48,510 nt of DNA from Nitrospinota bacterium (GCA_038108555.1 JAYNIA010000014.1:1-48510), one strand, 5' to 3'; shown: positions 10,785 to 48,463, counted from the first letter of the stretch. A program made the numbers and translations. The notes: generated by a model not told the origin, from the sequence alone.

Positions 10785-12518
10785 CTATTCGCTAAAAGAT
10801 TTTTCAGCAAGCGCAATGTGTTCTTCGCTATGAATTTCCAGCCAGCCTTTATGGATTTCCATGAAGTGGACCATGAAACCCCGGTCAATCATTTCCTGGA
10901 TAAGGTCGGTGAAATTGAGTTGTGAAATGTCCTCGGATTCTTGGAATTGGCCCTGGTAGTTTTTTACAATATCATTGTAGGTCTCAATCAGTTGTTCCGC
11001 TCCTGTTTTGCTGAATTTTGCAAGCCCTATAAATTCGTGGCTGGCAGTTTCCGGATTTATTTTATTTCCAATTTTTGCCACCACGTTTTCGCTAGTGAAC
11101 CGTATTTCCCTTCGACTTGGCTTGTGCTGGTTCTTGGCAATAATGAAATCCAGGATATTTCCTTCCTGATGTTCATGGTATTGGGTTGAATTGTCAGCTA
11201 CCAGAATGATGTCTTCTCGTCGCCCCATTAGTTCTTTTATAATAGAGTCCTGCGCCAGAATATCCGAGTAAAGCATGATGAATCCATTATTCATTTTTTC
11301 CTTACCCACAAACAGCGAGTTAAGCATGGACCCGTTTTTGAAATCCTCGTTTTCAAGAATGTTAATCCCTTCAGCCTGCATTTGGTCTCTACCGTACCCG
11401 GCAATGACTGTGATGTCAGCGAGGTTGTTGTTGTTTAACGTTTGGATCTGATGGTCGAGAAGTGTTTTCCCACATATTTCCAGCATGGCCTTGGGTTTTC
11501 CATTTAGTTTTTTCTGTAAGACGGGATCTTCTCCTGCGGCAGGAATAATAACGGGAATATTGCTGGAAAGTTCGTTTTCCTGATCTTTTTCCTTAACATC
11601 CAGAAAGCCCACGGTTTTAAAAATTTCCCTTACGGTGCTACATAGAGGATCTGCTTCAAAGGATCGCTGGTTACGGAGAATTATTTTTGCGGTTTCCATC
11701 ATGGCTTTGTAGGCACTTCTCAGCAAATGATTTGCATGGATTATGATTTGGAATCCGGCGGCGTTAAGTTCTGTTTCGGTAGTTTGATTATAAGTGGTAG
11801 GAACACAAACCAGAGTTTTATTCAAATTCAGCTCTTTTGAAATTTCTTTATAGTGCCGGGCAAACTCGAATATTTGATCGGAGGATTTAGATTTTGAATG
11901 GATCATGATCCCATCCACTCCTGCTTGTAGATATATCCTTGCACGGTTTACAGCGTCTTCCATCGATTTTCCGGCTATGAGACTTTCCAGTCTGGCGATT
12001 ATCATGAAATCATCTGTCTTTTGGATCTTTTTTCCGCGACGAATTTTTTGTGCAAACACTTCCGGGTCTTCCAGGTTTTGCTGGACCCCTGATTCGAGGC
12101 TGTTCCGTTTGGGAAAAACCTTGTCTTCAATGATGATGGCCGAGACACCCGCTTTTTCTAATTTGGATACGGTATATTCAAAAGCATTTGCATCACCTCC
12201 TGTGTCACCATCTACAATCATGGGTTTATGGGTAACAGCGAGTATTTCATTAATGGTTTGAAGCCTGGAGTCAAAGGTTACAACCTCTATGTCGGGGTGG
12301 CCTTTTGAGGCTGAGTCAGTAAGGCTGCTTTCCCAGATTGCATCAAATTCTCGAGTGACAGGATTGCCATCAGACTCTCCCTGAACCTGAATGTTATTGG
12401 CAATGATTCCGCTCAGCCCGTTATGGGCTTCAAGGACACGTACTAATTTTCCTTCATTTAGAAGGGCTTTTAGTTTTCCTCTGCGTTGTTCAGGAAGTAT
12501 GTTGTTGAGTAGGGTCAT
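10785..12518 (-). CDS. pepM: Phosphoenolpyruvate mutase fused to a C-terminal nucleotidyltransferase (AepX/PepM-PntC-like)
   Basis: PEP-mutase signature EDKVFPKRNS (EDK-x5-NS), plus LEAHNGLSG, DGDTGG and ARLESLI; C-terminal IIPAAG...KPKAM, YSDIL and WLEI NTP-transferase motifs. Confidence 0.92.
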   Translation of the reverse strand: MTLLNNILPEQRRGKLKALLNEGKLVRVLEAHNGLSGIIANNIQVQGESDGNPVTREFDAIWESSLTDSASKGHPDIEVVTFDSRLQTINEILAVTHKPMIVDGDTGGDANAFEYTVSKLEKAGVSAIIIEDKVFPKRNSLESGVQQNLEDPEVFAQKIRRGKKIQKTDDFMIIARLESLIAGKSMEDAVNRARIYLQAGVDGIMIHSKSKSSDQIFEFARHYKEISKELNLNKTLVCVPTTYNQTTETELNAAGFQIIIHANHLLRSAYKAMMETAKIILRNQRSFEADPLCSTVREIFKTVGFLDVKEKDQENELSSNIPVIIPAAGEDPVLQKKLNGKPKAMLEICGKTLLDHQIQTLNNNNLADITVIAGYGRDQMQAEGINILENEDFKNGSMLNSLFVGKEKMNNGFIMLYSDILAQDSIIKELMGRREDIILVADNSTQYHEHQEGNILDFIIAKNQHKPSRREIRFTSENVVAKIGNKINPETASHEFIGLAKFSKTGAEQLIETYNDIVKNYQGQFQESEDISQLNFTDLIQEMIDRGFMVHFMEIHKGWLEIHSEEHIALAEKSFSE

Positions 12519-12815: not shown

Positions 12816-14183
12816 TTAGCTGATGACTCTCATTATGTCGTTGTAAAATGCAAATACCATTAAGCTTATTAACATGAAGAGTCCTACCTGCTGAGCTCTT
12901 TCTCTGTTTCTTTCGCTGACAGGCTTCCCTTTTAGAATTTCAATCAGGAAAAAGAAAATATGCCCACCATCTAAAACCGGGATGGGCAATAAGTTTAAAA
13001 GGCCCAGGTTAATACTCAACAATGCGGTAAGGCGAATGAGTTCGGCAAAGCCCTGTTCTGCCTGTTCCCCGTATATCTGGAAAATCAGAATGGGGCCACC
13101 AATGGAGTCTGCAGGAATTGAGCCCCATATCATTTTTTTAATGCTCACTGCGATCAGGTAAATTAGTTCCCACGTTTTTTCGCAAGCCTTTTTAAAAGCT
13201 CCTAGAATTCCATATTTCTCCTGGACTTTTTCCCCCTCCAGTCCAATGCCAATCATTCCGATTTCAATTTCTTTGCCTTGAAGGTCTTTGGTCTTCTTTT
13301 TGACAGGGGTTAGTTTCAGAACCATTTCACTTCCGTTTCTTAAAACGTGAAACGAAAGTTCTTTTCCGGGTTTATCACTCGCGGCAGGTTTTAATTCTTG
13401 CCATCCAAATATTGGAGTGTCATCAACCTTCAAAAGAATATCCCCCGCTTGAATGCCGGCTGTGTTGGCTGGGCTGCCTTCTTTTACCAAGGTGATGTTT
13501 TGCGCTAGCGGGGTGATTCCTATGAGTCCCACTGATTTTTTGTCCCCGAACAGGTCGGTAATTTGTTTTGAGACGGGAGCAATGGGGATGTCAAGGATAC
13601 TGCCATTTCTATCTATTTTGAAATTCAGAGAACGTCCGGGAGCATCGTAAACAATTTTTTGAAGTTGTTCCCAAAAAAGAATCTTATCTTCTCCAATGGC
13701 CAAAATTCGATCTCCCGTTTGCAAACCGGCAGCGAGTGCGGGGGACTCCTCATTTACCGAACCTACAACAGGTGATATTGCCGGGACTCCCATGAGATAG
13801 ACAAAATAATAGATGCCGATGGCAAAAAGTATATTGAAGAGAGGGCCTGCGAAAGCAATGGCAAGACGGTGTCCCACAGGAGCTGCGGCAAAGGACCCTT
13901 GTTCGCTGGCTTCTTCTTCTCCTATTTCTTCTCCCTTCATTTTTACATAACCCCCCAGGGGGATTGCTGCAATCAGATATTCGGTTCCTCCTCTTGTAAA
14001 GCCCACAATTTTGGGGCCGAATCCCAATGCAAATTTTTCAACCACAACTCCGACTTTCCTGGCGACAAGAAAATGTCCCAGTTCGTGCACAAATATGAGA
14101 GCTGCAAGTCCGGCAAGAAAAGCCAGCATTTTGGTGCTGAAACTCAGGATTGCATCAAAAGGTAAAATTGATAGTTCGTACAT
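12816..14183 (-). CDS. rseP: RIP metalloprotease RseP (site-2 protease, two PDZ domains)
   Basis: HELGH, PLGGYVKM and NLLPIPVLDGG motifs; two SPA..AG.Q.GD PDZ repeats. Confidence 0.96.
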   Translation of the reverse strand: MYELSILPFDAILSFSTKMLAFLAGLAALIFVHELGHFLVARKVGVVVEKFALGFGPKIVGFTRGGTEYLIAAIPLGGYVKMKGEEIGEEEASEQGSFAAAPVGHRLAIAFAGPLFNILFAIGIYYFVYLMGVPAISPVVGSVNEESPALAAGLQTGDRILAIGEDKILFWEQLQKIVYDAPGRSLNFKIDRNGSILDIPIAPVSKQITDLFGDKKSVGLIGITPLAQNITLVKEGSPANTAGIQAGDILLKVDDTPIFGWQELKPAASDKPGKELSFHVLRNGSEMVLKLTPVKKKTKDLQGKEIEIGMIGIGLEGEKVQEKYGILGAFKKACEKTWELIYLIAVSIKKMIWGSIPADSIGGPILIFQIYGEQAEQGFAELIRLTALLSINLGLLNLLPIPVLDGGHIFFFLIEILKGKPVSERNRERAQQVGLFMLISLMVFAFYNDIMRVIS

Positions 14184-14189
14184 TATTTG

Positions 14190-14846
14190 TCAGGGTTTTT
14201 TTGTGAAATCCAATACCTCCACATTGGGAGGGGTCTGGAAATGAAAGGTTTTATCGGGAATACTTCTGTTTGTTTTTATATGACTGAAAAGCATTTCAGT
14301 CCTATTTCCTAATTTATCATACACGGTTGATCCAGTAATCTGTAAGTTTTTCTTGTTGGCAAATAGTTCCAGCCTTTTTAGAGCCTGGTCTTCCTCCTTG
14401 GGGATGAGCGTTATGCTTATTGGGTCGCGGTCGAGATCAACACTTTCAACGTTAAAGGACTCAAGCAATTTTCCTTTTCCTGCAAGAAAAAGAGCAGGAG
14501 TATTTGAAGAATAAATACTTTCAATGGGCACTTGGGTGACCTGTTCTTCCTCGGATACGTAATGCCAAAGGATTTTGCCATTGCTTATCAAAACCTGGGT
14601 GTCCGGTTCACCATAGATCCATTTCATCTTGCCAGGTTTTTTTATAGTAACTGTTCCTGTTGCAGTCTGAGTGTTGTCCATCATTTTTACGTAGGATTTT
14701 TGTGTGAAATCTGCTTCGAAGGTCAAAATCTTTTCGTAATTTTTCTGCACTGTATCCAGGGCTTGTTGCTCGGGGGTTTCAGCAAAACCCATGGTGGAAA
14801 ATAAAAAAATAAAAATAATGACTATATACTTTATTAAATGAACCAA
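14190..14846 (-). CDS. lolA: Outer-membrane lipoprotein carrier protein LolA
   Basis: Signal peptide; ADFTQ, KKPGKMKWIY, ISNGKILWHY and C-terminal F.F..P motifs. Confidence 0.88.
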   Translation of the reverse strand: MVHLIKYIVIIFIFLFSTMGFAETPEQQALDTVQKNYEKILTFEADFTQKSYVKMMDNTQTATGTVTIKKPGKMKWIYGEPDTQVLISNGKILWHYVSEEEQVTQVPIESIYSSNTPALFLAGKGKLLESFNVESVDLDRDPISITLIPKEEDQALKRLELFANKKNLQITGSTVYDKLGNRTEMLFSHIKTNRSIPDKTFHFQTPPNVEVLDFTKKP

Positions 14847-14847
14847 T

Positions 14848-15474
14848 TTAGTTTCCTTTATTGTGTCTTAAAACTCTTCGGCCTGAAATTTCAATCTTTT
14901 CTTCAATAATTAATCGAATCGCTTCCGGGTATATAATGTGTTCTTGTTCCAGAATTCTTTTGGAAAGAGACTCTGTATCGTCATCATCTCGAACAGGAAC
15001 AACCGCTTGTATAATAATCTCACCTCCATCAACCTCTTCATTGACAAAATGAACTGTGCAGCCCGAAAACTTCACTCCATGTTCCAAAGCTCTTTTTTGG
15101 ACATGCAGTCCGGGGAATGCCGGAAGCAGGGAAGGATGGATATTTATGATTTTTCCAGAAAAAGCCTGGATGAATTTTTTCCCAAGTATCCTCATAAATC
15201 CGGCCAGGCATATCAGGTCCACTGATTTTGATTGCAAAAGCTCAATCATTTTTTGCTCATAATCAGCCTTGTCCGGATAAACTTTAGGGTCTAAAAAGAC
15301 AACTTCCAGTCCATGGTTTTTGCCGCGTTCCAGGGCATAAGCATCCTTAACATTGCTTAAAACCACAGATATTTCTGCTGCCAGATCATTTTTTTCAATG
15401 CTATCTATAATAGCCTGCAAATTAGAGCCGCGCCCGGACACTAGAACGGCGAGTTTGAATTTTTTCGATACCAT
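14848..15474 (-). CDS. purN: Phosphoribosylglycinamide formyltransferase
   Basis: SGRGSNLQA, LAGFMRIL, NIHPSLLP and GCTVHFV..EVDGG motifs. Confidence 0.98.
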   Translation of the reverse strand: MVSKKFKLAVLVSGRGSNLQAIIDSIEKNDLAAEISVVLSNVKDAYALERGKNHGLEVVFLDPKVYPDKADYEQKMIELLQSKSVDLICLAGFMRILGKKFIQAFSGKIINIHPSLLPAFPGLHVQKRALEHGVKFSGCTVHFVNEEVDGGEIIIQAVVPVRDDDDTESLSKRILEQEHIIYPEAIRLIIEEKIEISGRRVLRHNKGN

Positions 15475-15855
15475 TGAAAATAGGTGATTTACTATGAAAT
15501 CAAGGTTGGTGGAGATGGCAATCTCCGATCAGCTTAGCATTAACTATTATTTTAAATCAACGATTTCCCTAGAAAGGGATAAAAATAGCAAATTCTGGCT
15601 AATTTGTCGGTCTAGGAATAATTTGGGAAGCAAAAAGGGGCTTTTAATAGATAATTAGGAACAATTTGGCAAAAATATTAATAACGTTAAGAAACGTAGT
15701 GGTTTAAAATATAAATTGTGACAAATTCTTACCACTGTTGTGAATTTTGATGTGTAATTATGAATGAACTCTGTTCATTTGATTTGTTAGGAAATGTTTA
15801 TTTCGGGTTAATTTGTTAGACCGCCAGGCAAATATTGATTTTAAAGATCCAAAAA

Positions 15856-16815
15856 ATGGAAAAAATAAAGGTACTTTTGCTTGAAGATAATGAAGTTGAC
15901 GTAGAAGCAATACAAAGATTGATTCGTACTCAAAATTTACCCTACGTTCTCAAAGTTGCTTATACGTGTAATGAAACAAAAGGTTTTTTGGACCAGGAAG
16001 AATTCGATGTGATCTTGTTGGACTCGCATGTGCCGGACGGTTCGGGATTAAGTCTGTTATCCGATTTGAAAAATACACCGGCAATAATAATTACGGGTCA
16101 AGGCGATGAAGATACCGCAGTTCGTGCATTAAAGGAAGGAGCAAGTGATTATCTTGTTAAGGATCCTTCAGGAATGTATCTGCATTTGCTTCCTACAGTT
16201 GTCAAAGAAACATTAAATAAGCAGCGGCTTCATGAAGATAAAATCAAAGCCGAAAATGAAAGGGAAAAACTTTTTAAGGAATTAGAAAAAGCACATCGCG
16301 AGTTGAAAGCCTTATCTCGAATTGATCCTCTTACAAAGCTTTCCAACAGGCGGGATATAAAATACAAAATTGATTATGAAATTTCACGATTTGAAAGAAG
16401 CAGTGAGACATTCTCGATTATCCTCGCAGATATAGATAATTTTAAAGACATACATTCAAAACTGGGGGATGAAGGCACCGAAACATTGATAAAACTGGTT
16501 GCTGACCGATTGGTTCGGGAATGTCGAAAGGTGGATACGGTGGGCCGTTGGGGGACAGAAGCTTTTATGATAATTGTTCCCGAGACAAATTTGTCGGGTG
16601 CTGCAAAATTGGCTGAAAATTTGCGGGAGACCTTTATAGAAGAAATTTCTATATTGAAAACAAACCTCAAATTTTCCATAAGCTTTGGAGCCTCTGCTTA
16701 TGTAAATGGCTTGTCAGTAAATGGGTTCACCGATATTGTTGAGACCTTTTTGCTTAAAGCCAAAAGTTCTGGCGGAGGGAAGGTTGTTTCACTTCCTTCC
16801 CAGGTTAATGTTTAG
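15856..16815 (+). CDS. Response regulator with degenerate GGDEF domain
   Basis: REC domain (LLEDN, ILLDS, TGQG, YLVK), DPLT, DIDNFK; active site reads GRWGTEAF; start set at ATG 15856. Confidence 0.9.
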   Translation: MEKIKVLLLEDNEVDVEAIQRLIRTQNLPYVLKVAYTCNETKGFLDQEEFDVILLDSHVPDGSGLSLLSDLKNTPAIIITGQGDEDTAVRALKEGASDYLVKDPSGMYLHLLPTVVKETLNKQRLHEDKIKAENEREKLFKELEKAHRELKALSRIDPLTKLSNRRDIKYKIDYEISRFERSSETFSIILADIDNFKDIHSKLGDEGTETLIKLVADRLVRECRKVDTVGRWGTEAFMIIVPETNLSGAAKLAENLRETFIEEISILKTNLKFSISFGASAYVNGLSVNGFTDIVETFLLKAKSSGGGKVVSLPSQVNV

Positions 16816-16948
16816 GTTTATTTTTTAATTTGCATGCTAAAACCTGTCCCCTGCACTTAGGTTTCCATGTTAAGATCGCACAGGTTTTTGTTTTAAAAAG
16901 CATTGATTTTTCGTTTTTAAATTGCCTGGCTCCAAAAAAAGAAAATAC

Positions 16949-18379
16949 ATGAATGACCTTCTAAAAATTTTATTGGTCGATGATGACGAAGCTGATGTAA
17001 CTCAAATTCAGCGTTTGTTGGAAAGATCAAAGTTAGATGTCAACATCACCCATGTTGGAGATTGTAAAAGTGGGGTTGCCGAATTAGAAGATCAGATTTT
17101 TGATTGTGCCTTGATCGATTATCACCTTCCAGATGCAAAAGGGGTTGAAATAATCGATCAAATCCGCGATGTGGATGTAAATGAAATGCCTTTGATCGTC
17201 TTGACCGGAATGGGGAGCGAGACCACAGCAATAGAGGTTTTGAAAAAAGGCGCTGCTGATTACGTGACGAAAAACGGATTGAATGCTGAAATTCTGGAAA
17301 GAAGCATTACCAATGCTGTTCAGATCCACCAGTTTCAACAAAAAGCCAAAGCTGCAGAGAGAGCCTTGTTGGAAAGGGAGAAACAATATCGGACTATCAT
17401 TGAAACGGTTTCGGATATTATCATTCAATTGGATGTGGAAGGAAAAATAGAATTTGTTAATCCGGCGATTCGGTTTTTAGGGTATGAACCTTCTGAAATA
17501 GCGGGACACCATATAGGAAAGTTTGTTGAAAAAGTCGAGGGAGTGGAATACCACGATGATTTGATTTCCCTCATAACCACTAAAGGGGTTGGCCCCATGG
17601 CTACAAATAATTTGGAGGTCAACTTCCTGGTAGAAAAGGAATCGACCTTGTGGGAGCAGAACAGGGCCATTCCTGTATTGATGGATGCGTTTGGGTTATG
17701 GGATGTTCCGGACGAGATGGTTTTTAAAAGGGGTGAGGAAAAAAACTTTCTTGGAACTCTTTGTATAGCTCGAAAAATTACAGAGGTTAAGGCTATGGAA
17801 GAAGAGCTTCTGAATACCCAGGCCCGCTTGATAGGAGCCGTGGAGGAGCTTAAAGAGTTGGCAACCAAAGATGCTTTAAAGGGGATATCCAATCGTCGAT
17901 TTTTTGATGAGTATCTGGAAAAGGAATGGAAAAGGGCGCAAAGGGATCAATATCCTTTTTCACTGGTTATGATCGATCTGGATTATTTCAAACTTTATAA
18001 CGATACCTATGGCCATCAAAGAGGAGACACTTGTTTAAAAGAGGTGGCAGGTGTCATTGATGATGCCATGAAAAGGCCTGCGGATATGGCTGCAAGATTC
18101 GGCGGTGAAGAGTTTGCATTGGTCCTCCCTGAAACCAGCTCGGAAGGGGCCATCAGGCTTTCTGATAAATTGCGAGAAGCAATTTACTCCATGAATCTGG
18201 AGCATAAGAATAATCCTAACGAACCCCGTGTAACCGTGAGTATGGGAACCGCTACCATGAAAGTGGATAAAGGAAGCGATTATAAGGATTTGATAGCGAA
18301 AGCGGATAAGGCTTTATATGCCGCCAAAAATAGTGGAAGGAATCGGGTTGCAAGTTTCGATGAAGGTATGGAATTTTAA
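16949..18379 (+). CDS. REC-PAS-GGDEF diguanylate cyclase
   Basis: REC domain (VDDD, LIDY), PAS-like FVNPA, NDTYGHQRGD, RPAD I-site and intact GGEEF; start set at ATG 16949. Confidence 0.94.
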   Translation: MNDLLKILLVDDDEADVTQIQRLLERSKLDVNITHVGDCKSGVAELEDQIFDCALIDYHLPDAKGVEIIDQIRDVDVNEMPLIVLTGMGSETTAIEVLKKGAADYVTKNGLNAEILERSITNAVQIHQFQQKAKAAERALLEREKQYRTIIETVSDIIIQLDVEGKIEFVNPAIRFLGYEPSEIAGHHIGKFVEKVEGVEYHDDLISLITTKGVGPMATNNLEVNFLVEKESTLWEQNRAIPVLMDAFGLWDVPDEMVFKRGEEKNFLGTLCIARKITEVKAMEEELLNTQARLIGAVEELKELATKDALKGISNRRFFDEYLEKEWKRAQRDQYPFSLVMIDLDYFKLYNDTYGHQRGDTCLKEVAGVIDDAMKRPADMAARFGGEEFALVLPETSSEGAIRLSDKLREAIYSMNLEHKNNPNEPRVTVSMGTATMKVDKGSDYKDLIAKADKALYAAKNSGRNRVASFDEGMEF

Positions 18380-18462
18380 TGCCTCAAAAATACGATTTTA
18401 GGGAATAATTAGAGCCCTTTCCTGATCTTTAGTTACGGAATTTCTATTCCACCCCTTTTTGT

Positions 18463-18511
18463 AATCCGCTCGCCTGCTCTACCTCCCTGGCGGGCGGATT
18501 TTTAGTTTTTT
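18463..18511 (+). terminator. Intrinsic terminator after the diguanylate cyclase
   Basis: AATCCGCTCGCC...GGCGGGCGGATT stem followed by TTTAGTTTTTT. Confidence 0.7.
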
Positions 18512-18636
18512 CCCCCCTTATCCAGCCCAATATCATTGATCCCTTGGTGACATTTGATAAGATAGAGGCTTGTATTTTCAGCTTCTAAAAGAAGGGACCG
18601 CTTTGCCATGCAAATTAAATTATCGGGTGGAGAAAA

Positions 18637-19479
18637 ATGAAGATCGAAGATGTTGTTGACGACTGGGTTGCAAGTCCGCCGGATCTTTATTTTAAGCTCA
18701 AAGAAGTGATTGAAGACCCTGAAAGCTCATTTAAGGATATTGGAGGGGTGATCCTTCACGACCCGGCTCTTTGTGCGCGGATTTTAAAAATATCGAATAG
18801 TCCTCTTTTTAATTCCGAGTCTGAGGTTGAAACGATTGAACATGCATTGACTTTTATAGGGATGAATCAATTAGAGGAATTGGTTCTGGGTACCGTGGTG
18901 ATGGAAACTTTTAAGGGTATCCCGGTTGATTTGATAGATATCAATTCATTCTGGAAACACAGCATTGCTTGTGCTTTAACCGCCCGATTGATTGCCGAAC
19001 ATATTAACGAACCGGACCGGGAAAGATTTTACCTGCTTGGGATATTGCACGATATTGGTAGTCTGGTTATTTATAAAAAAGCACCCAAAGCTGCAAAACA
19101 GGCTTTAGACCTAAGTGAGGAAGGTTCAAAACCTTTATTTGAGGTTGAGACTCAGGTGCACGGTTTTAACCATGCAGAAGCAGGTGCTGCCCTGTTTCAT
19201 GCCTGGAGATTGCCCGAACGGTTGATTGAAGTGGTGGCCTGCCACCATTCCCCTCGAAAGTCCAAAAAATATTTAAGGGATGCTTCCATAATCCAACTGG
19301 CAGATATTATTTCCCACGAATTGGATTTGCAGGGAACGGGGGAAGGTTATTCGTCACCTATTGATGACGCCCTTCTTGAAGAATTGGGGCTTGCGGCAGA
19401 GGATGTGGATCAAATAAAAGAACAGTTAAAAGATCAGTTTGAACAAACGGCCGAAGTGTTTTTGTCTGCAACTTCTTGA
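18637..19479 (+). CDS. HDOD domain protein
   Basis: DPAL.ARILK.SNS, FWKHS, GILHDIG, HAEAGA and W.LP motifs; GGAG RBS. Confidence 0.93.
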   Translation: MKIEDVVDDWVASPPDLYFKLKEVIEDPESSFKDIGGVILHDPALCARILKISNSPLFNSESEVETIEHALTFIGMNQLEELVLGTVVMETFKGIPVDLIDINSFWKHSIACALTARLIAEHINEPDRERFYLLGILHDIGSLVIYKKAPKAAKQALDLSEEGSKPLFEVETQVHGFNHAEAGAALFHAWRLPERLIEVVACHHSPRKSKKYLRDASIIQLADIISHELDLQGTGEGYSSPIDDALLEELGLAAEDVDQIKEQLKDQFEQTAEVFLSATS

Positions 19480-19500
19480 TTGGGTTTGGAATCTTTAGTG

Positions 19501-20847
19501 ATGGTGTTTAAAAGAATAATTTGTTCATTGTTTTTTTGGGGATGGATCCTTGTTCCAACACTTGCTTTTGCGGAATTGGATGATTCATTTATGCAGGCAG
19601 TTTTCGATGGGGATACCAAAAAAGCAGCATTTCTTCTCGATTCGGGTGCGGATATCGAAACCCGTACCAAAAAAGGAAGTACAGCTTTGATCGTTGCCTC
19701 GGCCAGGGGAGATTCCGAAATGATCAAGTTTTTGCTGGATCGGGGATCAAAAGTAAACTCCAAAAACCGGTACGATGATACGGCTCTGTTACTGTGCTCT
19801 ACCCGTGGAAATAATTTTTGCGTAAAAAGTCTCCTTGAAAAAGATGTCGATGTAAATGCAAGAAACATGCATGGTTGGAGTCCGTTGGCAAGGGCAGCGC
19901 GCTATGGTCATATGGAGACGATGCAGTTGTTAATCAAGCAGGGCGCAAACATAGAAAATCAACTCAATGATGGAGCGACGCCTTTATTGATGGCCGCAGG
20001 GGAAGAACATATCGGCGCGGTTCATTTGTTGTTGGAAAAAGGGGCCAATGTCCATGCTAAAGATTACGATGGTAATCAACCCATATTGCTTGCTGCCCTG
20101 ACGGGGCGTGCAGATATTATGGAACTCCTCATTTCAAAGGGAGCGGATATAAACACCAGAAATTCTTTTGGGGATCCCATTATATTTTTAGCCATCGAAC
20201 GGGGTTTTTCCGATTGCGTAAAACTGTTGATCGAATCCGGAATAAATGTGGAATTTCGCAGCCCTAAAGGTTGGACTCCCTTAATGCGTGCTGCCAAATA
20301 TGGTCGTGACAAAACTGCGAACCTTTTGATTGAGAAAGGTGCCGATGTGAATTCTGTAAGCAGAGGGGGAGCCACTGCTTTAATGATCGCTTCGGAAAAG
20401 GGCCATTTGGATGTTGTAAAACTCTTGATTGAAAAAAACGCAAATGTAAATGCGAAAAGTAAAAACGGAGCAACTCCTATTATCAGTGCAGCTGCGGGTG
20501 GGCATGAAGATATTGTTTCCTACTTGCTGAAAAAAGGAGCAGAAATCCACACTCATATAAGAAACGGATCTACCGCTTTGATGGTCGCCGCCGAAAGAGG
20601 ACATTTGGACACCGTAAAAGTTTTGATGGATCAGGGAGCAGATATTCAAGCGCGTAGCCATCAGGGATGGACTCCTTTGATGGTTGCTGCAGCAGGGGGG
20701 CACGCGGAAATTACCCGTTTGTTTTTGGACAAGGGGGCTAAATGGGATGTGAAATCCAAAGCGGGTTGGACCCCATTGAAGGTCGCTGCTAAATTAGGTA
20801 AGAAAGAAGTGTATCAGCAACTCATTGCTGCCGGTGCAAGAAGGTAA
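19501..20847 (+). CDS. Secreted ankyrin-repeat protein (about 13 repeats)
   Basis: Signal peptide (..LAFA) followed by 13 tandem 33-aa G.TPL..AA..G....V..LL..GA repeats. Confidence 0.95.
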   Translation: MVFKRIICSLFFWGWILVPTLAFAELDDSFMQAVFDGDTKKAAFLLDSGADIETRTKKGSTALIVASARGDSEMIKFLLDRGSKVNSKNRYDDTALLLCSTRGNNFCVKSLLEKDVDVNARNMHGWSPLARAARYGHMETMQLLIKQGANIENQLNDGATPLLMAAGEEHIGAVHLLLEKGANVHAKDYDGNQPILLAALTGRADIMELLISKGADINTRNSFGDPIIFLAIERGFSDCVKLLIESGINVEFRSPKGWTPLMRAAKYGRDKTANLLIEKGADVNSVSRGGATALMIASEKGHLDVVKLLIEKNANVNAKSKNGATPIISAAAGGHEDIVSYLLKKGAEIHTHIRNGSTALMVAAERGHLDTVKVLMDQGADIQARSHQGWTPLMVAAAGGHAEITRLFLDKGAKWDVKSKAGWTPLKVAAKLGKKEVYQQLIAAGARR

Positions 20848-20852
20848 AGCCT

Positions 20853-23060
20853 TCAATTTTTCTCTATTAGATTGTCACGGATTATTTTAAGAAGGCCGAC
20901 ATTTTGGGTATGACCCGACTTGCTGGCTTTTATTTTTCCACGAATGGGTCTTCCCAGTAAATAAAAGTCCCCCAGGATATCCAAAATTTTGTGGCGTGGA
21001 AACTCATCTTCAAAACGCAATTTGGTATTTAAAACCTTCTTGTCCCCTAACAAAATAAAATTGTCGAGTTTCCCTCCAGAGGCATAGCCCATTTTTGTAA
21101 GCTGTGCTACTTCTTCCATGAAACCGAAGGTACGGGCCGGTGCAATTTCTTTCTTGAAACTTTCATCTCCCTGAAATTCAAAAGTGAAATCCTGAACTCC
21201 AATGGGTTCTGGATATTCCATATGGTAGCTGACTGAAAAATTGTCGCTGGGTTCGATCGAAATATAGGGTTCGCCTTTTTCCTTGTTGCCAAAAGAATAG
21301 CTTTTGTCAACCACGATCTCTTCATAGAAATCGTCCTGATCTTCAAATTCACCGTCTTCAAGAAGTTCGCAGAAATCTTTGGCTGAACCATCCATAACCG
21401 GTGCTTCATCACCAATTTTAATGAGAAGGTTTGTAACCCGGTACATGTGTAATGTTGCCATTATGTGTTCAATCGTTCCCACAGAATTTGCACCTCTTTT
21501 CAAGCAGGTGGAATAGTCCGTCGATTGAACGTTTTCCAACTGTGCAGGGATGGTGTTTCCAGATGCGATGTCACCAAAGATAATCCCGCTGCCGGGTGGC
21601 ATGGGTTGTAGGATGAGTCCTGTTTTAATTCCGGAATGCAGGCTGCTGCCGCAAAGAACAACACTTCTTTTTAAGGTTCGTTGTGGGTATTTTTTTTGCG
21701 GCGAAGCTGAGCTGGCTTCCTGTAACTCTATGGAATGAAATTTTAGTTTTTCCTGAAATTGGGTTTTGCTGGTTTTTAAAACCTTGCAGGTTTCGTCAAT
21801 ATTCCAGTTGTTTCTTTTTAGATGGTGAAGAATAAAATGCTTTTCCCAAATCGATTCGGCTTCCTGAAGTGATCCTGCCTCGTTAAAGGAACTGATATCG
21901 ATTTGATTTTGGGGTTTCCAGATTTCCGAGGGTAAATCCTTAATGCTTATTGTTTTCTGGTTGGCGCAAGTCAGAATCAATTTTTCTAAAACCGTTCTCA
22001 GTTCTTTAATGTTTCCCGGCCAGCTATATCTGCAAAGTGCAGTGAAGACATCTTCTTCGATAGTTGGAAGTGAAGAGTTTGTTTCACGCTTTTTCTCCTC
22101 CCAAAAGTCTTTCGCAATTAAAGAAATACTGGCTGCATGATTCCTCAGTGGGGGAATGGCCAGACGGGTTTCTTTAAAGCATTCAAGCAATCCTTGATGA
22201 AACCGACCCTTTTCAGCCAGTTCGTTGAGGTCTTCAGAAGATGAAATGAAAATTCTTTCGGGCAAAAACTCAAAGCTGGAGTCAGGATCGGTTGCGTTTT
22301 GTAATGCATCTGCAATTTTTTCCTGAAGGCCCTTGCTGAGGGATTCAATATTGCTCAGATAAACAACCTTGGCTCCTGTTGGGGATTGGGCTGTTGATGT
22401 GGTTTTTTTGTCTTTTCGTTGGAACAGTTGGGATTGAATAGCCTGCTTTTGTCGATAAGTGCAATTCAGTTTTACAAAAGGAAGGCTGCCAATCCTGCTT
22501 TGGGAATGGATGGTCCGCGCAACGGTTTCTTTCCCAGTCCCCGTTTCGCCCAATAGCAATACAGGCTTGGCATGTTTTGCCAGGGCCTTGATCCCCTTTT
22601 TAACTTCGACCATGGATTCGAAGCAATAGGGAAGTTCCTTTAGGTCCTGAGGTGACTTGACCTCTGCAGCCTGGACAGATTTCTTTTCTTGTAGAACATT
22701 TTGAATGGACTCGGTGATCCGATCGAGAGAGAAAGGTTTTTCAATAAAATCCTGAGCCCCAAGTTTTGTAGCTTTAACGGCAGTGTCTATTGTGCCGTGC
22801 CCGGACATAATCAAAACTTCAACTCCCGGATTATAGGTTTTTAAAGTCTTTAAAACTTCAATGCCATCCATCCCGGGCAGCCATATGTCGAGTAAAACGA
22901 GATCGGGCGGGTCTTTCTGAATTAATTCCAAAGCCTCTACACCGTCACCTGTCATTGAAACATCATACCCTTCGTCAGATAAGATGCCTGTAAGAGAACT
23001 GACAATATTTTTTTCGTCGTCAACGATTAGGATGCGTTCTTTAGTCAAACTTTTCTCCAA
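20853..23060 (-). CDS. lpxC: Fusion of response regulator REC, degenerate sigma54-type AAA+ and HTH domains to UDP-3-O-acyl-GlcNAc deacetylase LpxC
   Basis: N-terminal IVDDE/LLDIWLP/SGHG/EKP; GETGTGKE and WPGNIKEL; from residue ~460 QRTL, LHSG, TIEH, P.MDGS, IAPARTFGF, HKILDILGD and SGH. Confidence 0.93.
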   Translation of the reverse strand: MEKSLTKERILIVDDEKNIVSSLTGILSDEGYDVSMTGDGVEALELIQKDPPDLVLLDIWLPGMDGIEVLKTLKTYNPGVEVLIMSGHGTIDTAVKATKLGAQDFIEKPFSLDRITESIQNVLQEKKSVQAAEVKSPQDLKELPYCFESMVEVKKGIKALAKHAKPVLLLGETGTGKETVARTIHSQSRIGSLPFVKLNCTYRQKQAIQSQLFQRKDKKTTSTAQSPTGAKVVYLSNIESLSKGLQEKIADALQNATDPDSSFEFLPERIFISSSEDLNELAEKGRFHQGLLECFKETRLAIPPLRNHAASISLIAKDFWEEKKRETNSSLPTIEEDVFTALCRYSWPGNIKELRTVLEKLILTCANQKTISIKDLPSEIWKPQNQIDISSFNEAGSLQEAESIWEKHFILHHLKRNNWNIDETCKVLKTSKTQFQEKLKFHSIELQEASSASPQKKYPQRTLKRSVVLCGSSLHSGIKTGLILQPMPPGSGIIFGDIASGNTIPAQLENVQSTDYSTCLKRGANSVGTIEHIMATLHMYRVTNLLIKIGDEAPVMDGSAKDFCELLEDGEFEDQDDFYEEIVVDKSYSFGNKEKGEPYISIEPSDNFSVSYHMEYPEPIGVQDFTFEFQGDESFKKEIAPARTFGFMEEVAQLTKMGYASGGKLDNFILLGDKKVLNTKLRFEDEFPRHKILDILGDFYLLGRPIRGKIKASKSGHTQNVGLLKIIRDNLIEKN

Positions 23061-23065
23061 TGGTT

Positions 23066-23716
23066 TCAGGTGACAGAGGTCACCGCTGCCTGCTTTAAAT
23101 ATTCAAGGTAAAATATCTTTTCGCCGGCATTTATAAAGTTTTTTTCGTATTTTGATTTGGGAAGATTATTGCGCTCTTTAAGAAAACCCTGATTGTCATC
23201 CAGATTTTGCAACAGGGTTTCAGAATTTAAGTAGTCCAGCATTTCATGCGCATAGTTTTCGCTATCCGTGGCCAAACAGACCCTTCCTTCCGGACTCAGC
23301 TTGTTCGCCAATTGGAGAATAAATTCCGGTTTGATCAGTCTTCTTTTTATATGTCTTTTTTTAGGCCATGGATCAGGGAAATTGATATAAACCGTATCCA
23401 ATTCCCCCTCTTGAAACAGATAAGGGATTTTATTTCTGATATCCCCATAAACAATCCGAATGTTTTTTAACTGAAGGTTTTTAATGCGGGTCATTATTTT
23501 TCGGATACCCTTATGATAAAAATCTATCCCTATAAAATTACTTGTGGGCTCTTTGGCTGCCATCTCAATCAGGAAGCTTCCCATCCCAAAGCCAATTTCA
23601 AGCTTTAATGGATGGGAATTACCAAAATGAGTCGGCCAATCCGGCCTTTCATCCATATCCAGAAAAAAGGGATCGTGTTCGGCTATTTGTGCAAACGATA
23701 TCAGTGGTTTTCCCAT
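23066..23716 (-). CDS. trmB: tRNA (guanine-N7)-methyltransferase TrmB
   Basis: LEIGFGMG, NFPDPWPKKRHIKRRL, ATD and SKYE motifs. Confidence 0.96.
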   Translation of the reverse strand: MGKPLISFAQIAEHDPFFLDMDERPDWPTHFGNSHPLKLEIGFGMGSFLIEMAAKEPTSNFIGIDFYHKGIRKIMTRIKNLQLKNIRIVYGDIRNKIPYLFQEGELDTVYINFPDPWPKKRHIKRRLIKPEFILQLANKLSPEGRVCLATDSENYAHEMLDYLNSETLLQNLDDNQGFLKERNNLPKSKYEKNFINAGEKIFYLEYLKQAAVTSVT

Positions 23717-23728
23717 TAGCTTTTAAAC

Positions 23729-24214
23729 TTAATCCTCATCGACTGGAAAATCATGTATGGTGATAACTTTCAAAACTTCAAATTCCAACCTGTTGTCAGG
23801 GAGAGGCACGATAACATCATCCCCTTCCTGTTTTCCTACCAGAGCGCGGCCTACGGGTGAGGCCGGGGAAAGCTTTCTTTCATCGGGGTTCACTTCTTCG
23901 GGAAAAACCAAATGGTATTTATTTTCTTCACCGGTGTTTAAATCGCGGAGGTAAAGGGTGCTTCCCAGTCCGGAACGGTCATTGGGTATCTGGTCCAGAT
24001 TAATGGATGTGATATCGCTGATTCTTTTTTGTAAAAGTGAAACCCGGGACTCTAATAACATTTGTCTTTCTTTTGCTGCCTTATATTCTGCGTTTTCACT
24101 CAAGTCGCCATGTTCACGCGCAGTTTTAATGGCTTGAGGTATGTCCACCTGCAATTCTTTGTGGGCATCTTTTAAATCTTGCTCTAGTTTGTCCAAAATA
24201 GGAAGCCGAGCCAT
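23729..24214 (-). CDS. greA: Transcription elongation factor GreA
   Basis: AREHGDLSENAEYKAAKE and SPVGRALVGK motifs. Confidence 0.93.
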   Translation of the reverse strand: MARLPILDKLEQDLKDAHKELQVDIPQAIKTAREHGDLSENAEYKAAKERQMLLESRVSLLQKRISDITSINLDQIPNDRSGLGSTLYLRDLNTGEENKYHLVFPEEVNPDERKLSPASPVGRALVGKQEGDDVIVPLPDNRLEFEVLKVITIHDFPVDED

Positions 24215-46856: not shown

Positions 46857-47124
46857 GAAAATCTGACTTTTAACCTAATGACCCCTGAATTACGACCAAT
46901 TGGTTTCTTTAAAACGCTATTAGGGTTTTTTCCTACAATACATATAGGTTAAATTCATACTGTTTTAGGTTTTTAGACTACTAAAAAATCAGGATTACGC
47001 CTATACCCCCGGTGAGGTGGATAAATTAGAATCTCCCCCAAGAAACTTGAAAAAGCCTTTTAAACACGTTTTTGTGGAGTGTTCTTTTAATAGTGTTTCT
47101 TTAACGCCAATTAAGGAGAGGGTT

Positions 47125-47565
47125 ATGAAAAAGATTTTTGTTTTAACAGTTGCTTTCATCGCAGGTTTTGCTCTGACAGCTAACGCAGGCAGCATTGCTC
47201 CCGGTGAAATGACCAAATGTAATGATGCCAAAAGCATCACTTTGGAAAACGCAGGTCCTGCAAACAAATCTAACGACAAATTCGGTTACACCAGTAATGA
47301 TCGTGGTGGTGCTAATGTAGTGGTTTGGAAGTCCTCAAACTTCACGACAGTTCCCATCTCATTAGGACCGAACGACAACAACGACAGTCTGAACGGTACC
47401 GATGGTGGACGTACTGGGTTGCCACAAAGAGGTGGAATGGGTAAGCATAAAGTAACCTTGACCTCCCAAAAAGCTTTTAGCCGTGGTGATTCCATTGGTG
47501 ATATTTCTGGATTGGTTAAAATCACCAACACTGGTACCAACGCTGTAACGGTTACCTGTAACTAA
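47125..47565 (+). CDS. Small secreted protein, tandem copy 1 (146 aa)
   Basis: Strong RBS TAAGGAG; signal peptide ending ANA; near-identical paralog downstream. Confidence 0.9.
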   Translation: MKKIFVLTVAFIAGFALTANAGSIAPGEMTKCNDAKSITLENAGPANKSNDKFGYTSNDRGGANVVVWKSSNFTTVPISLGPNDNNDSLNGTDGGRTGLPQRGGMGKHKVTLTSQKAFSRGDSIGDISGLVKITNTGTNAVTVTCN

Positions 47566-48022: not shown

Positions 48023-48463
48023 ATGAAAAAGATTTTCGCTTTAACAGTTGCTTTCATCGCAGGTTTTGCTCTGACAGCTAACGCAGGCAGCATTGCTCCT
48101 GGTGAAATGACCAAATGTAATGATGCCAAAAGCATTACCTTGGAAAACGCAGGTCCTGCAAACAAGTCTGACGACAAATTCGGTTACACCAGCAACGATC
48201 GTGGTAGCGCGAATGTTTCCGTTTGGAAATCTTCAAACTTCACCACTGTTCCCATCTCATTGGGGCCGAACGACAACAATGCAAGCCTCAATGGTACCGA
48301 TCATGGTAAAACCGGATTGCCTCAAAGAGGTGGAATGGGTGCACATAAAGTGACCCTAACCCATCAAAAGGCATTCAGCCGTGGTGATTCTATTGGTGAT
48401 ATTTCTGGATTGGTTAAAATCACCAACATTGGAACCAACTCTGTAACGGTTACCTGTAACTAA
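48023..48463 (+). CDS. Small secreted protein, tandem copy 2 (146 aa)
   Basis: 135/146 aa identical to copy 1 by manual alignment; same RBS and signal peptide. Confidence 0.9.
   Translation: MKKIFALTVAFIAGFALTANAGSIAPGEMTKCNDAKSITLENAGPANKSDDKFGYTSNDRGSANVSVWKSSNFTTVPISLGPNDNNASLNGTDHGKTGLPQRGGMGAHKVTLTHQKAFSRGDSIGDISGLVKITNIGTNSVTVTCN

Follow-up and report, generated by a model that had tools for sequence, protein, structure and literature searches.

Can the enzyme that commits the cell to the synthesis of lipid A, for the outer membrane, be placed directly under the control of a two-component system? The question is raised by a gene on the complementary strand of a contig from a Nitrospinota bacterium (GCA_038108555.1, JAYNIA010000014.1:1-48510; the whole of this 48,510 nt stretch is termed the window), in which an NtrX-type receiver, a degenerate AAA+ module, a Fis-like helix-turn-helix (HTH) region and LpxC are encoded one after another. 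The original prediction, made from the DNA sequence alone, was that two-component signalling gates lipid A synthesis through this protein, or else that LpxC exerts feedback on transcription. The first of these claims holds as regards the fusion, which is genuine, conserved and the only lpxC match of its genome, with a receiver that appears to be under selection; the gating itself is an interpretation, to which we give roughly even odds. In databases these proteins are annotated as LpxC or as NtrX.

The frame is open for 735 codons (20853-23060), and residue numbers throughout refer to this 735 aa reading. Translation probably begins at the second TTG, at 23048, rather than at 23060, because this codon follows a GGAG motif, TTG is the nearest start codon at the equivalent place in 52 of the 68 fusions that are not identical to one another (43 of the 68 combining TTG with a Shine-Dalgarno-like motif), and the public gene call is also of 731 aa. 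Hence the single 735 aa open reading frame (ORF) originally described stands as a frame, but its product is likely to be 731 aa long; the four parts share one frame in both readings. It is very improbable that the fusion is an artefact of assembly or annotation, or that an internal start lets the one frame yield two proteins. In 32 of the 68 fusions an ATG, GTG or TTG does occur in frame within 25 codons before the start of LpxC, and one cluster member (P0326) stops in the middle of the AAA+ module; however, chance would give such a codon in 73% of cases, and the P0326 end is far from the junction. The window gene has none of the three codons between codons 380 and 460, which agrees with the earlier observation that no methionine precedes the QRTL motif and argues against a simple lost stop codon. 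A conserved internal start giving free LpxC was rejected on the grounds of these frequencies and of the absence of such a codon from the window gene. Assembly contigs from three further runs, all of one study, to which the possible source run also belongs, cross the junction with no insertion or deletion, and all 120 of the 120 homologues among the matches listed carry both the receiver and the LpxC Pfam domains. A scan for promoters and terminators between 20700 and 24700 gave counts at the level of shuffled sequence (6 against 6.7; 4 against 5.8). No RNA data set with this gene was listed in a search of sequencing runs, a result that has no bearing on expression.

The closest named relatives of the protein are found in Nitrospinota genomes of the Nitrospinales, with at most 87% identity over the full length. 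Exactly one lpxC match was present in 108 of 120 Nitrospinota genomes, and in 56 of the 57 best assemblies. Ninety-two of the 108 matches lie in frames of at least 650 aa, eight are shorter receiver fusions and eight are cut by contig ends; the receiver was read directly in the fetched loci among the 92 long frames, in all eight short ones and in four of the cut ones, the remaining four being judged from their coordinates. No stand-alone lpxC was apparent among these 108 matches. One deep-branching genome (G113; L142:3668-5935, 90% complete in 430 contigs) gave no lpxC match, and the gene after its ntrY is an unrelated one.

A search of representatives of 50% clusters with a deep-branching member recovered additional fusions, 419 to 736 aa in length, from clusters that include members from the Entotheonellia, Spirochaetota, Deltaproteobacteria and Nitrospinota. 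A short member used as query against the ESM Atlas gave receiver and LpxC together in 17 of the 30 matches listed. Two leads come from the same source: those members of the top three matches with a known phylum are mostly Binatota and Myxococcota, and the window protein corresponds to a cluster of 381 members, mostly Nitrospinota. A metagenome scan, in which 80 of at least 599 loci were kept, yielded 17 fused, 58 unfused and five cut genes. In a FastTree phylogeny of 131 LpxC domains (26 chosen Nitrospinota, the 30 representatives, and the 17 fused and 58 unfused metagenome sequences, the five cut ones being excluded), the 73 fused domains all group in a single clade (support 0.96), separate from the 58 unfused domains and with none of these nested in it, the unfused sample being narrow (effective number 16). 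The architecture is conserved through the Nitrospinota and beyond, and the fusion is genuine, ancient and widespread.

By every sequence test the fused C-terminal domain is LpxC. It matches positions 1-266 of the 268 in PF03331 (266 bits) and scores 223 bits against TIGR00325, the cut-off of which is 187; the predicted start near residue 460 was confirmed, and the TIEH, RTF, HKILD and SGH motifs align with those of solved LpxC. Residues E531, H532, H690, K691, D694, D698 and H717, which we take to be the zinc ligands and catalytic residues (EH, HKxxD and the catalytic histidine), are invariant in 73/73 fusions, and in an AlphaFold model of a relative, P0143, the LpxC part lies within a root mean square deviation of 1.6-2.7 Å of solved LpxC. 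Fused domains end earlier than unfused ones, with a median of 17 residues after the catalytic histidine against 39. The source genome (91.85% complete) has a single LpxC match, the fusion, and no separate canonical lpxC was found in it. Its lpxA, fabZ-like and lpxB-like genes form a cluster elsewhere, so fabZ is not part of the fusion, and the LpxC-FabZ fusion model NF009667 scores below its cut-off on the window protein.

The receiver likewise has the residues expected of a working domain. The acidic pocket D14/D15, the phospho-acceptor D58, S86, the aromatic switch F105 and K108-P109 are all present and align with solved chains of the NtrC/NtrX family, in accord with the intact phospho-site first reported. 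Across the 73 fusions the phospho-acceptor aspartate is kept in 71 and the lysine in 72, whilst W60, G87, E107 and P109 occur in every one. Of the NCBIfam models, NtrX (NF051870) fits the N-terminal part best, at 252 bits, below the equivalog cut-off of 600; hence the protein is, on profile and motif grounds, an LpxC with an NtrX-type receiver, being neither a sigma54 activator (see below) nor above the cut-off for an NtrX equivalog. In the source genome the fusion is the best match to a receiver profile built from the fusion family itself, at 212 bits, with the next of 58 matches at 94. The ratio of non-synonymous to synonymous substitution rates (dN/dS), pooled over 67 close pairs that are not independent of one another, is 0.041 for the receiver and 0.045 for LpxC, so that selection on the receiver appears to match that on the enzyme in strength. 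A tree of receivers does not contain a single fused clade, the largest clade of fused receivers only having 39 of 72.

The hallmarks of a sigma54 activator are the GAFTGA loop, the DE of Walker B and the arginine fingers. The window protein matches Sigma54_activat (residues 149-292, partial) and AAA_lid_14 (306-385), and keeps Walker A; its GAFTGA loop is replaced, its Walker B reads YLSN, and the arginine fingers are gone, with no arginine after the GxF motif. Amongst 63 AAA-bearing Nitrospinota proteins, G171, E172, G174 and K177 of Walker A (G-E-x-G-x-x-K) occur in 63/63 and the Walker B glutamate (position 237) in 0/63, the GAFTGA loop and the arginine fingers having been lost from this set as well. 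The AAA+-like domain of the original prediction is therefore present, but judged by these motifs it is degenerate and hydrolysis-dead; a working sigma54-dependent activator of the NtrC family was considered and rejected, the GAFTGA loop, Walker B DE and arginine fingers all being missing. The HTH of the window protein had no Pfam match at E values up to 0.001, and was recognised through its alignment to PDB 5m7n and through HTH_8 matches in the relatives P0135 and P0137, which bears out its description as Fis-like. Pooled dN/dS is 0.15 in the AAA+ core, 0.13 in its lid, lower in the HTH (0.078) and highest in the linkers (0.23-0.36).

These middle parts come and go: 22 of the 73 fusions have both AAA+ and HTH, 15 have AAA+ only, three have HTH only and 33 have neither, with the HTH absent from 48, including several Nitrospinales lineages. 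Each shows at least 11 changes of state on the LpxC tree, many of these on weak nodes. Within the window's own family, G058 (L232:1372-2733) encodes a receiver-LpxC protein of 453 aa from which AAA+ and HTH have been lost in frame, and keeps the gene order greA-trmB-fusion-purN. Receiver and LpxC thus appear to be the constant unit of the family, the middle part apparently still being selected in the lineage of the window.

What might act on the receiver is suggested by gene order. In 11 of 12 deep-branching loci, chosen from families outside the Nitrospinales, an NtrY-type kinase gene lies directly upstream of the fusion, and in all ten of these loci where the contig extends far enough it is preceded by a DUF4390-like gene; Pfam confirmation covers three DUF4390 proteins and one kinase, the latter having the architecture NtrY_N-HAMP-PAS-HisKA-HATPase. 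In the source genome, contig C54 ends with a DUF4390 (PlrP) gene (E 5.7e-29) and an NtrY_N ORF whose start it overlaps; the two follow mutS and an epimerase gene, as in the deep-branching relatives. An ntrY match is present in 105 of the 120 Nitrospinota genomes, and is single in 101. No response regulator of at least 130 aa was found beside ntrY in nine Nitrospinales loci, two of which are on contigs ending within about 1.3 kb. From the gene order in relatives we infer that NtrY is the cognate kinase of the fused receiver, and a rearrangement would have split an ancestral plrP-ntrY-fusion-purN order. At one further locus (L229:571-3954) an unfused lpxC of 306 aa is immediately followed, on the same strand, by a gene for an NtrY-type kinase; hence adjacency of lpxC and ntrY exists without fusion.

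A candidate contact site for the receiver lies in domain I of LpxC. In most fusions positions 466, 468, 479, 481, 483, 546 and 548 are S, V, K, G, I, L and K, whilst in unfused LpxC the first five of these are polar or variable and 548 is mostly glutamate. They alternate with buried hydrophobic positions in the strands of domain I, which lie at equivalent places in the P0143 model, and are therefore predicted to face outward. Mean entropy on the outer face of domain I is 1.36 in fused against 2.31 in unfused LpxC; on that of domain II it is 2.59 against 2.51. The patch is kept alike in the 36 short and the 37 long fusions, and the sole extra part common to both is the receiver. P0141 and P0142, which lack the phospho-acceptor aspartate, have the sole arginine at 468 and the sole residue other than lysine at 548, an anecdote from one small clade.

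We therefore put at about one in two the probability that a PlrP-NtrY pair phosphorylates the receiver, which then gates LpxC activity directly in cis. The periplasmic DUF4390 protein would tune the NtrY-type membrane kinase, which would set the phosphorylation state of the fused receiver; the receiver, or a partner recruited by it, would dock on LpxC, at the conserved outer face of its domain I, with an allosteric effect on activity. Receiver and LpxC would form the working unit, with AAA+ and HTH as remnants that might yet serve in dimerisation or nucleotide binding. Our guess leans slightly towards phosphorylation being activating, with NtrY restraining lipid A output as a phosphatase, by analogy: loss of the kinase raises lpxC in Rhodobacter sphaeroides and Desulfovibrio alaskensis, and PlrP has been proposed to curb the phosphatase activity of the kinase in Bordetella. 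A more extended proposal, that across several phyla PlrP reports the state of the envelope to NtrY and so to a receiver docking on the LpxC face, as a three-component relay ending on an enzyme, is tentative and falls somewhat short of even odds.

Several observations weigh against gating of this kind. The patch positions were picked post hoc, so that a shuffle figure of 0.7% is no clean test; shared ancestry can yield the same pattern, and the patch could be covered by the linker, replace the lost C-terminal tail or serve in dimerisation. The AlphaFold model of P0143, a short fusion modelled with 17 sequences, has both domains folded (predicted local distance difference test 85.9, predicted template modelling score 0.66), but residues 122-144, forming the linker, are disordered, and with this linker and score the model gives no confident docking of receiver on LpxC. 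Linkers between the two vary widely in length and sequence across the family. No fusion-specific receiver surface was found beyond the NtrX-type signature in a comparison with 83 unfused NtrC/NtrX-like proteins, helix 1 being the more conserved in fused receivers, and the serine or asparagine in place of the phospho-acceptor in P0141 and P0142, which are related and form one small clade, makes these possible pseudo-receiver forms. AAA+ and HTH are under purifying selection where present, with the invariant Walker A, and for this reason they appear to be more than baggage in the lineage of the window. The kinase does not adjoin the fusion in the Nitrospinales, including the source genome, in which the assembly reaches no further than codon 162 of ntrY; amongst the 17 fused metagenome loci it is directly upstream in four and absent in nine, four being too short.

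The main rival reading, which we consider clearly less likely than gating, is that the receiver sets the amount or location of LpxC rather than its rate, its phosphorylation state exposing or hiding a protease signal or tethering LpxC to NtrY at the inner membrane, in place of the LapB/YejM circuit. No LapB above the family threshold (41 bits for the best match, 363 being required) and no YejM/DUF3413 match were found in the source genome, in which FtsH is present; the long C-terminal tail reported to carry the Escherichia coli degron (PMC12444477) is missing from the fused LpxC, variable and disordered linkers would suit a tether, and the conserved, weak TTG start suggests that the amount of protein matters. 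However, the genome is 92% complete and a divergent LapB could escape detection (36 weak tetratricopeptide-like matches), no degron is evident, and the conservation of the LpxC patch speaks for a specific contact. A match to Zn_ribbon_LapB in this genome was rejected as LapB, as it sits in a RadA-like ORF.

The enzyme might instead be a passenger, or a sensor of lipid A precursor, on a working NtrX-like transcription factor, and so feed back on transcription. The low dN/dS of the HTH, the Walker A invariant in AAA-bearing forms and the NtrX model as best match to the N-terminal part are in keeping with this, and NtrX of R. sphaeroides is reported to bind DNA at envelope genes (PMC7240162). The loss of the HTH in 48 fusions, several Nitrospinales lineages among them, the 33 that are receiver and LpxC only, the variable positions of the recognition helix, and the lost GAFTGA loop and Walker B glutamate weaken this part of the original prediction; it is improbable, and tenable at most for HTH-bearing lineages such as that of the window. 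Nor does it seem probable that neighbouring ntrX and lpxC genes fused once as a frozen accident, LpxC being constitutive and the receiver kept as a phosphate sink or as an aid to folding or dimerisation. The single origin implied by the one fused clade, the unfused lpxC found upstream of ntrY at L229 and the undocked P0143 model would fit such an accident, but it leaves the retention of the receiver unexplained: the middle domains have repeatedly been lost, yet no receiver-less LpxC occurs in the clade or among the 108 matches of the phylum, and the chemistry of the phospho-site is kept in 71/73. Direct gating by the receiver remains the reading we prefer, and the features on which it rests are collected below with the neighbouring genes.

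Features of the receiver-LpxC fusion gene and its neighbours, in coordinates of the window
Feature	Position	Strand	Remarks
Receiver-AAA+(predicted dead)-HTH-LpxC fusion gene	20853..23048	-	731 aa from likely TTG at 23048; frame open from 23060
GGAG Shine-Dalgarno-like site	23055..23058	-	6 nt before TTG at 23048
NtrX-type receiver	22704..23033	-	residues 10-119; Pfam Response_reg E 1.6e-32
Phospho-acceptor D58	22887-22889	-	within receiver
Degenerate sigma54-type AAA+ core and lid	21906..22616	-	residues 149-385; Pfam and motif reading
Fis-like HTH region	21726..21875	-	residues 396-445; variable recognition helix; absent in many relatives
LpxC domain	20880..21683	-	residues 460-727; Pfam E 4.3e-79
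Fused-LpxC-specific patch (S466, V468, K479, G481, I483, L546, K548)	21417..21665	-	candidate docking site; predicted outer face of domain I sheet
trmB	23066-23716	-	upstream neighbour in Nitrospinales
greA	23729-24214	-	upstream neighbour in Nitrospinales
purN, lolA, rseP-like	12816..15474	-	usual downstream neighbours; here a 5 kb + strand block lies between

There was no sign of a functional link of trmB or greA to the fusion. In many relatives purN-lolA-rseP lie directly 3' of the fusion; in the window the intervening block (15835-20847, + strand) contains REC-GGDEF, REC-PAS-GGDEF, HDOD and ankyrin-repeat genes, and a smaller, similar insert is found in L046. A 577 aa protein encoded at 10785-12518 on the complementary strand, in which a phosphoenolpyruvate mutase domain is joined to a nucleoside triphosphate transferase-like domain, may be a sign of phosphonate synthesis; several relatives also have it close to the fusion. 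The + strand encodes, at 47017-47565 and 48023-48463, two small proteins that resemble each other and have signal peptide-like starts and no Pfam match.

The control of LpxC is more varied than the FtsH/LapB proteolysis and LpxC-FabZ fusion listed with the original prediction, which are part of the picture: published effects also include those of NtrYX and a Desulfovibrio system on transcription and those of MurA and LapB on activity. Binding of LapB is reported to lower E. coli LpxC activity by about 80% (PMC12444477), and MurA to activate Pseudomonas LpxC (PMC9995270). In R. sphaeroides, loss of NtrYX is described as raising lpxC mRNA 8.8-fold and lipopolysaccharide (LPS) about 2-fold, an effect of NtrX judged indirect there, with no binding site upstream of lpxC (PMC7240162). 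For the Desulfovibrio pairs DVU2931/DVU2934 and Dde_3000/Dde_3003 the only target reported is lpxC (PMC3333781, PMC4045070), and the kinase mutant over-expresses lpxC, as shown for D. alaskensis (PMC4045070). On the basis of Bordetella genetics PlrP has been proposed to restrain the phosphatase activity of PlrS; the PlrP-PlrS-PlrR system is described from beta- and gamma-proteobacteria, in a main text in which neither 'LPS' nor 'lipid' appears (PMC13001219). Acid is reported to trigger phosphorylation of NtrX, in passages that hold nothing on AAA+ or LpxC (PMC5892882). A 2025 review of LpxC regulation covers proteolysis, binding by MurA, LapB and Ght, and transcription, the words 'fused', 'fusion' and 'receiver' being absent from its main text (PMC12444477). 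A search of the literature, mostly of titles and the starts of abstracts and with few subscription journals, found no description of a receiver-LpxC fusion, in line with the suggestion that the system is undescribed; domain tables may mention it.

If the extended, three-component reading is correct, no earlier LpxC would have been known to be controlled through its own phosphorylation, which would join proteolysis and the binding of MurA as a third solution; it would also point to the lipid status of the envelope as the ancestral signal of NtrYX and PlrPSR systems. A receiver on the sole LpxC of marine nitrite oxidisers, and of lineages in several other phyla, would, should gating be borne out, represent a new mode of LpxC control. 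For NtrY and PlrP, the signal of which is unsettled, the fusion also provides one enzymatic activity as a read-out.

Amongst known systems the closest likeness is to NtrY/NtrX: residues 10-440 are colinear with the 'nitrogen assimilation regulatory protein' of PDB 5m7n (E 1.8e-50), the DIW, SGH and EKP signature of the receiver is alike, and so is the architecture of the partner kinase. However, known NtrX acts on DNA, whereas the fusion carries LpxC in cis, has an AAA+ and HTH that are dispensable across the family, and falls far short of the NtrX equivalog threshold. PlrP-PlrS-PlrR of Bordetella shares a DUF4390 gene immediately 5' of that for an NtrY-family kinase with an HEIKN motif, an arrangement also seen on contig C54, but PlrR is described as a receiver with a DNA-binding domain (PMC13001219). 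DVU2931/DVU2934 of Desulfovibrio, likened here by description and not by sequence, is also a two-component system aimed at lpxC, acting through a separate protein and sigma54-dependent transcription. LapB/YejM/FtsH in E. coli, MurA in Pseudomonas and Ght in Neisseria likewise make LpxC the control point, with protein docking that changes activity, but all of these act in trans and without a phospho-receiver. The LpxC-FabZ fusion demonstrates that LpxC tolerates fusion, and differs in its partner, FabZ being encoded by a separate gene in the source genome. Response regulators with enzymatic outputs are familiar from CheB and from PleD and WspR; to our knowledge such outputs are signalling enzymes, and not, as here, the committed step of an essential biosynthesis.

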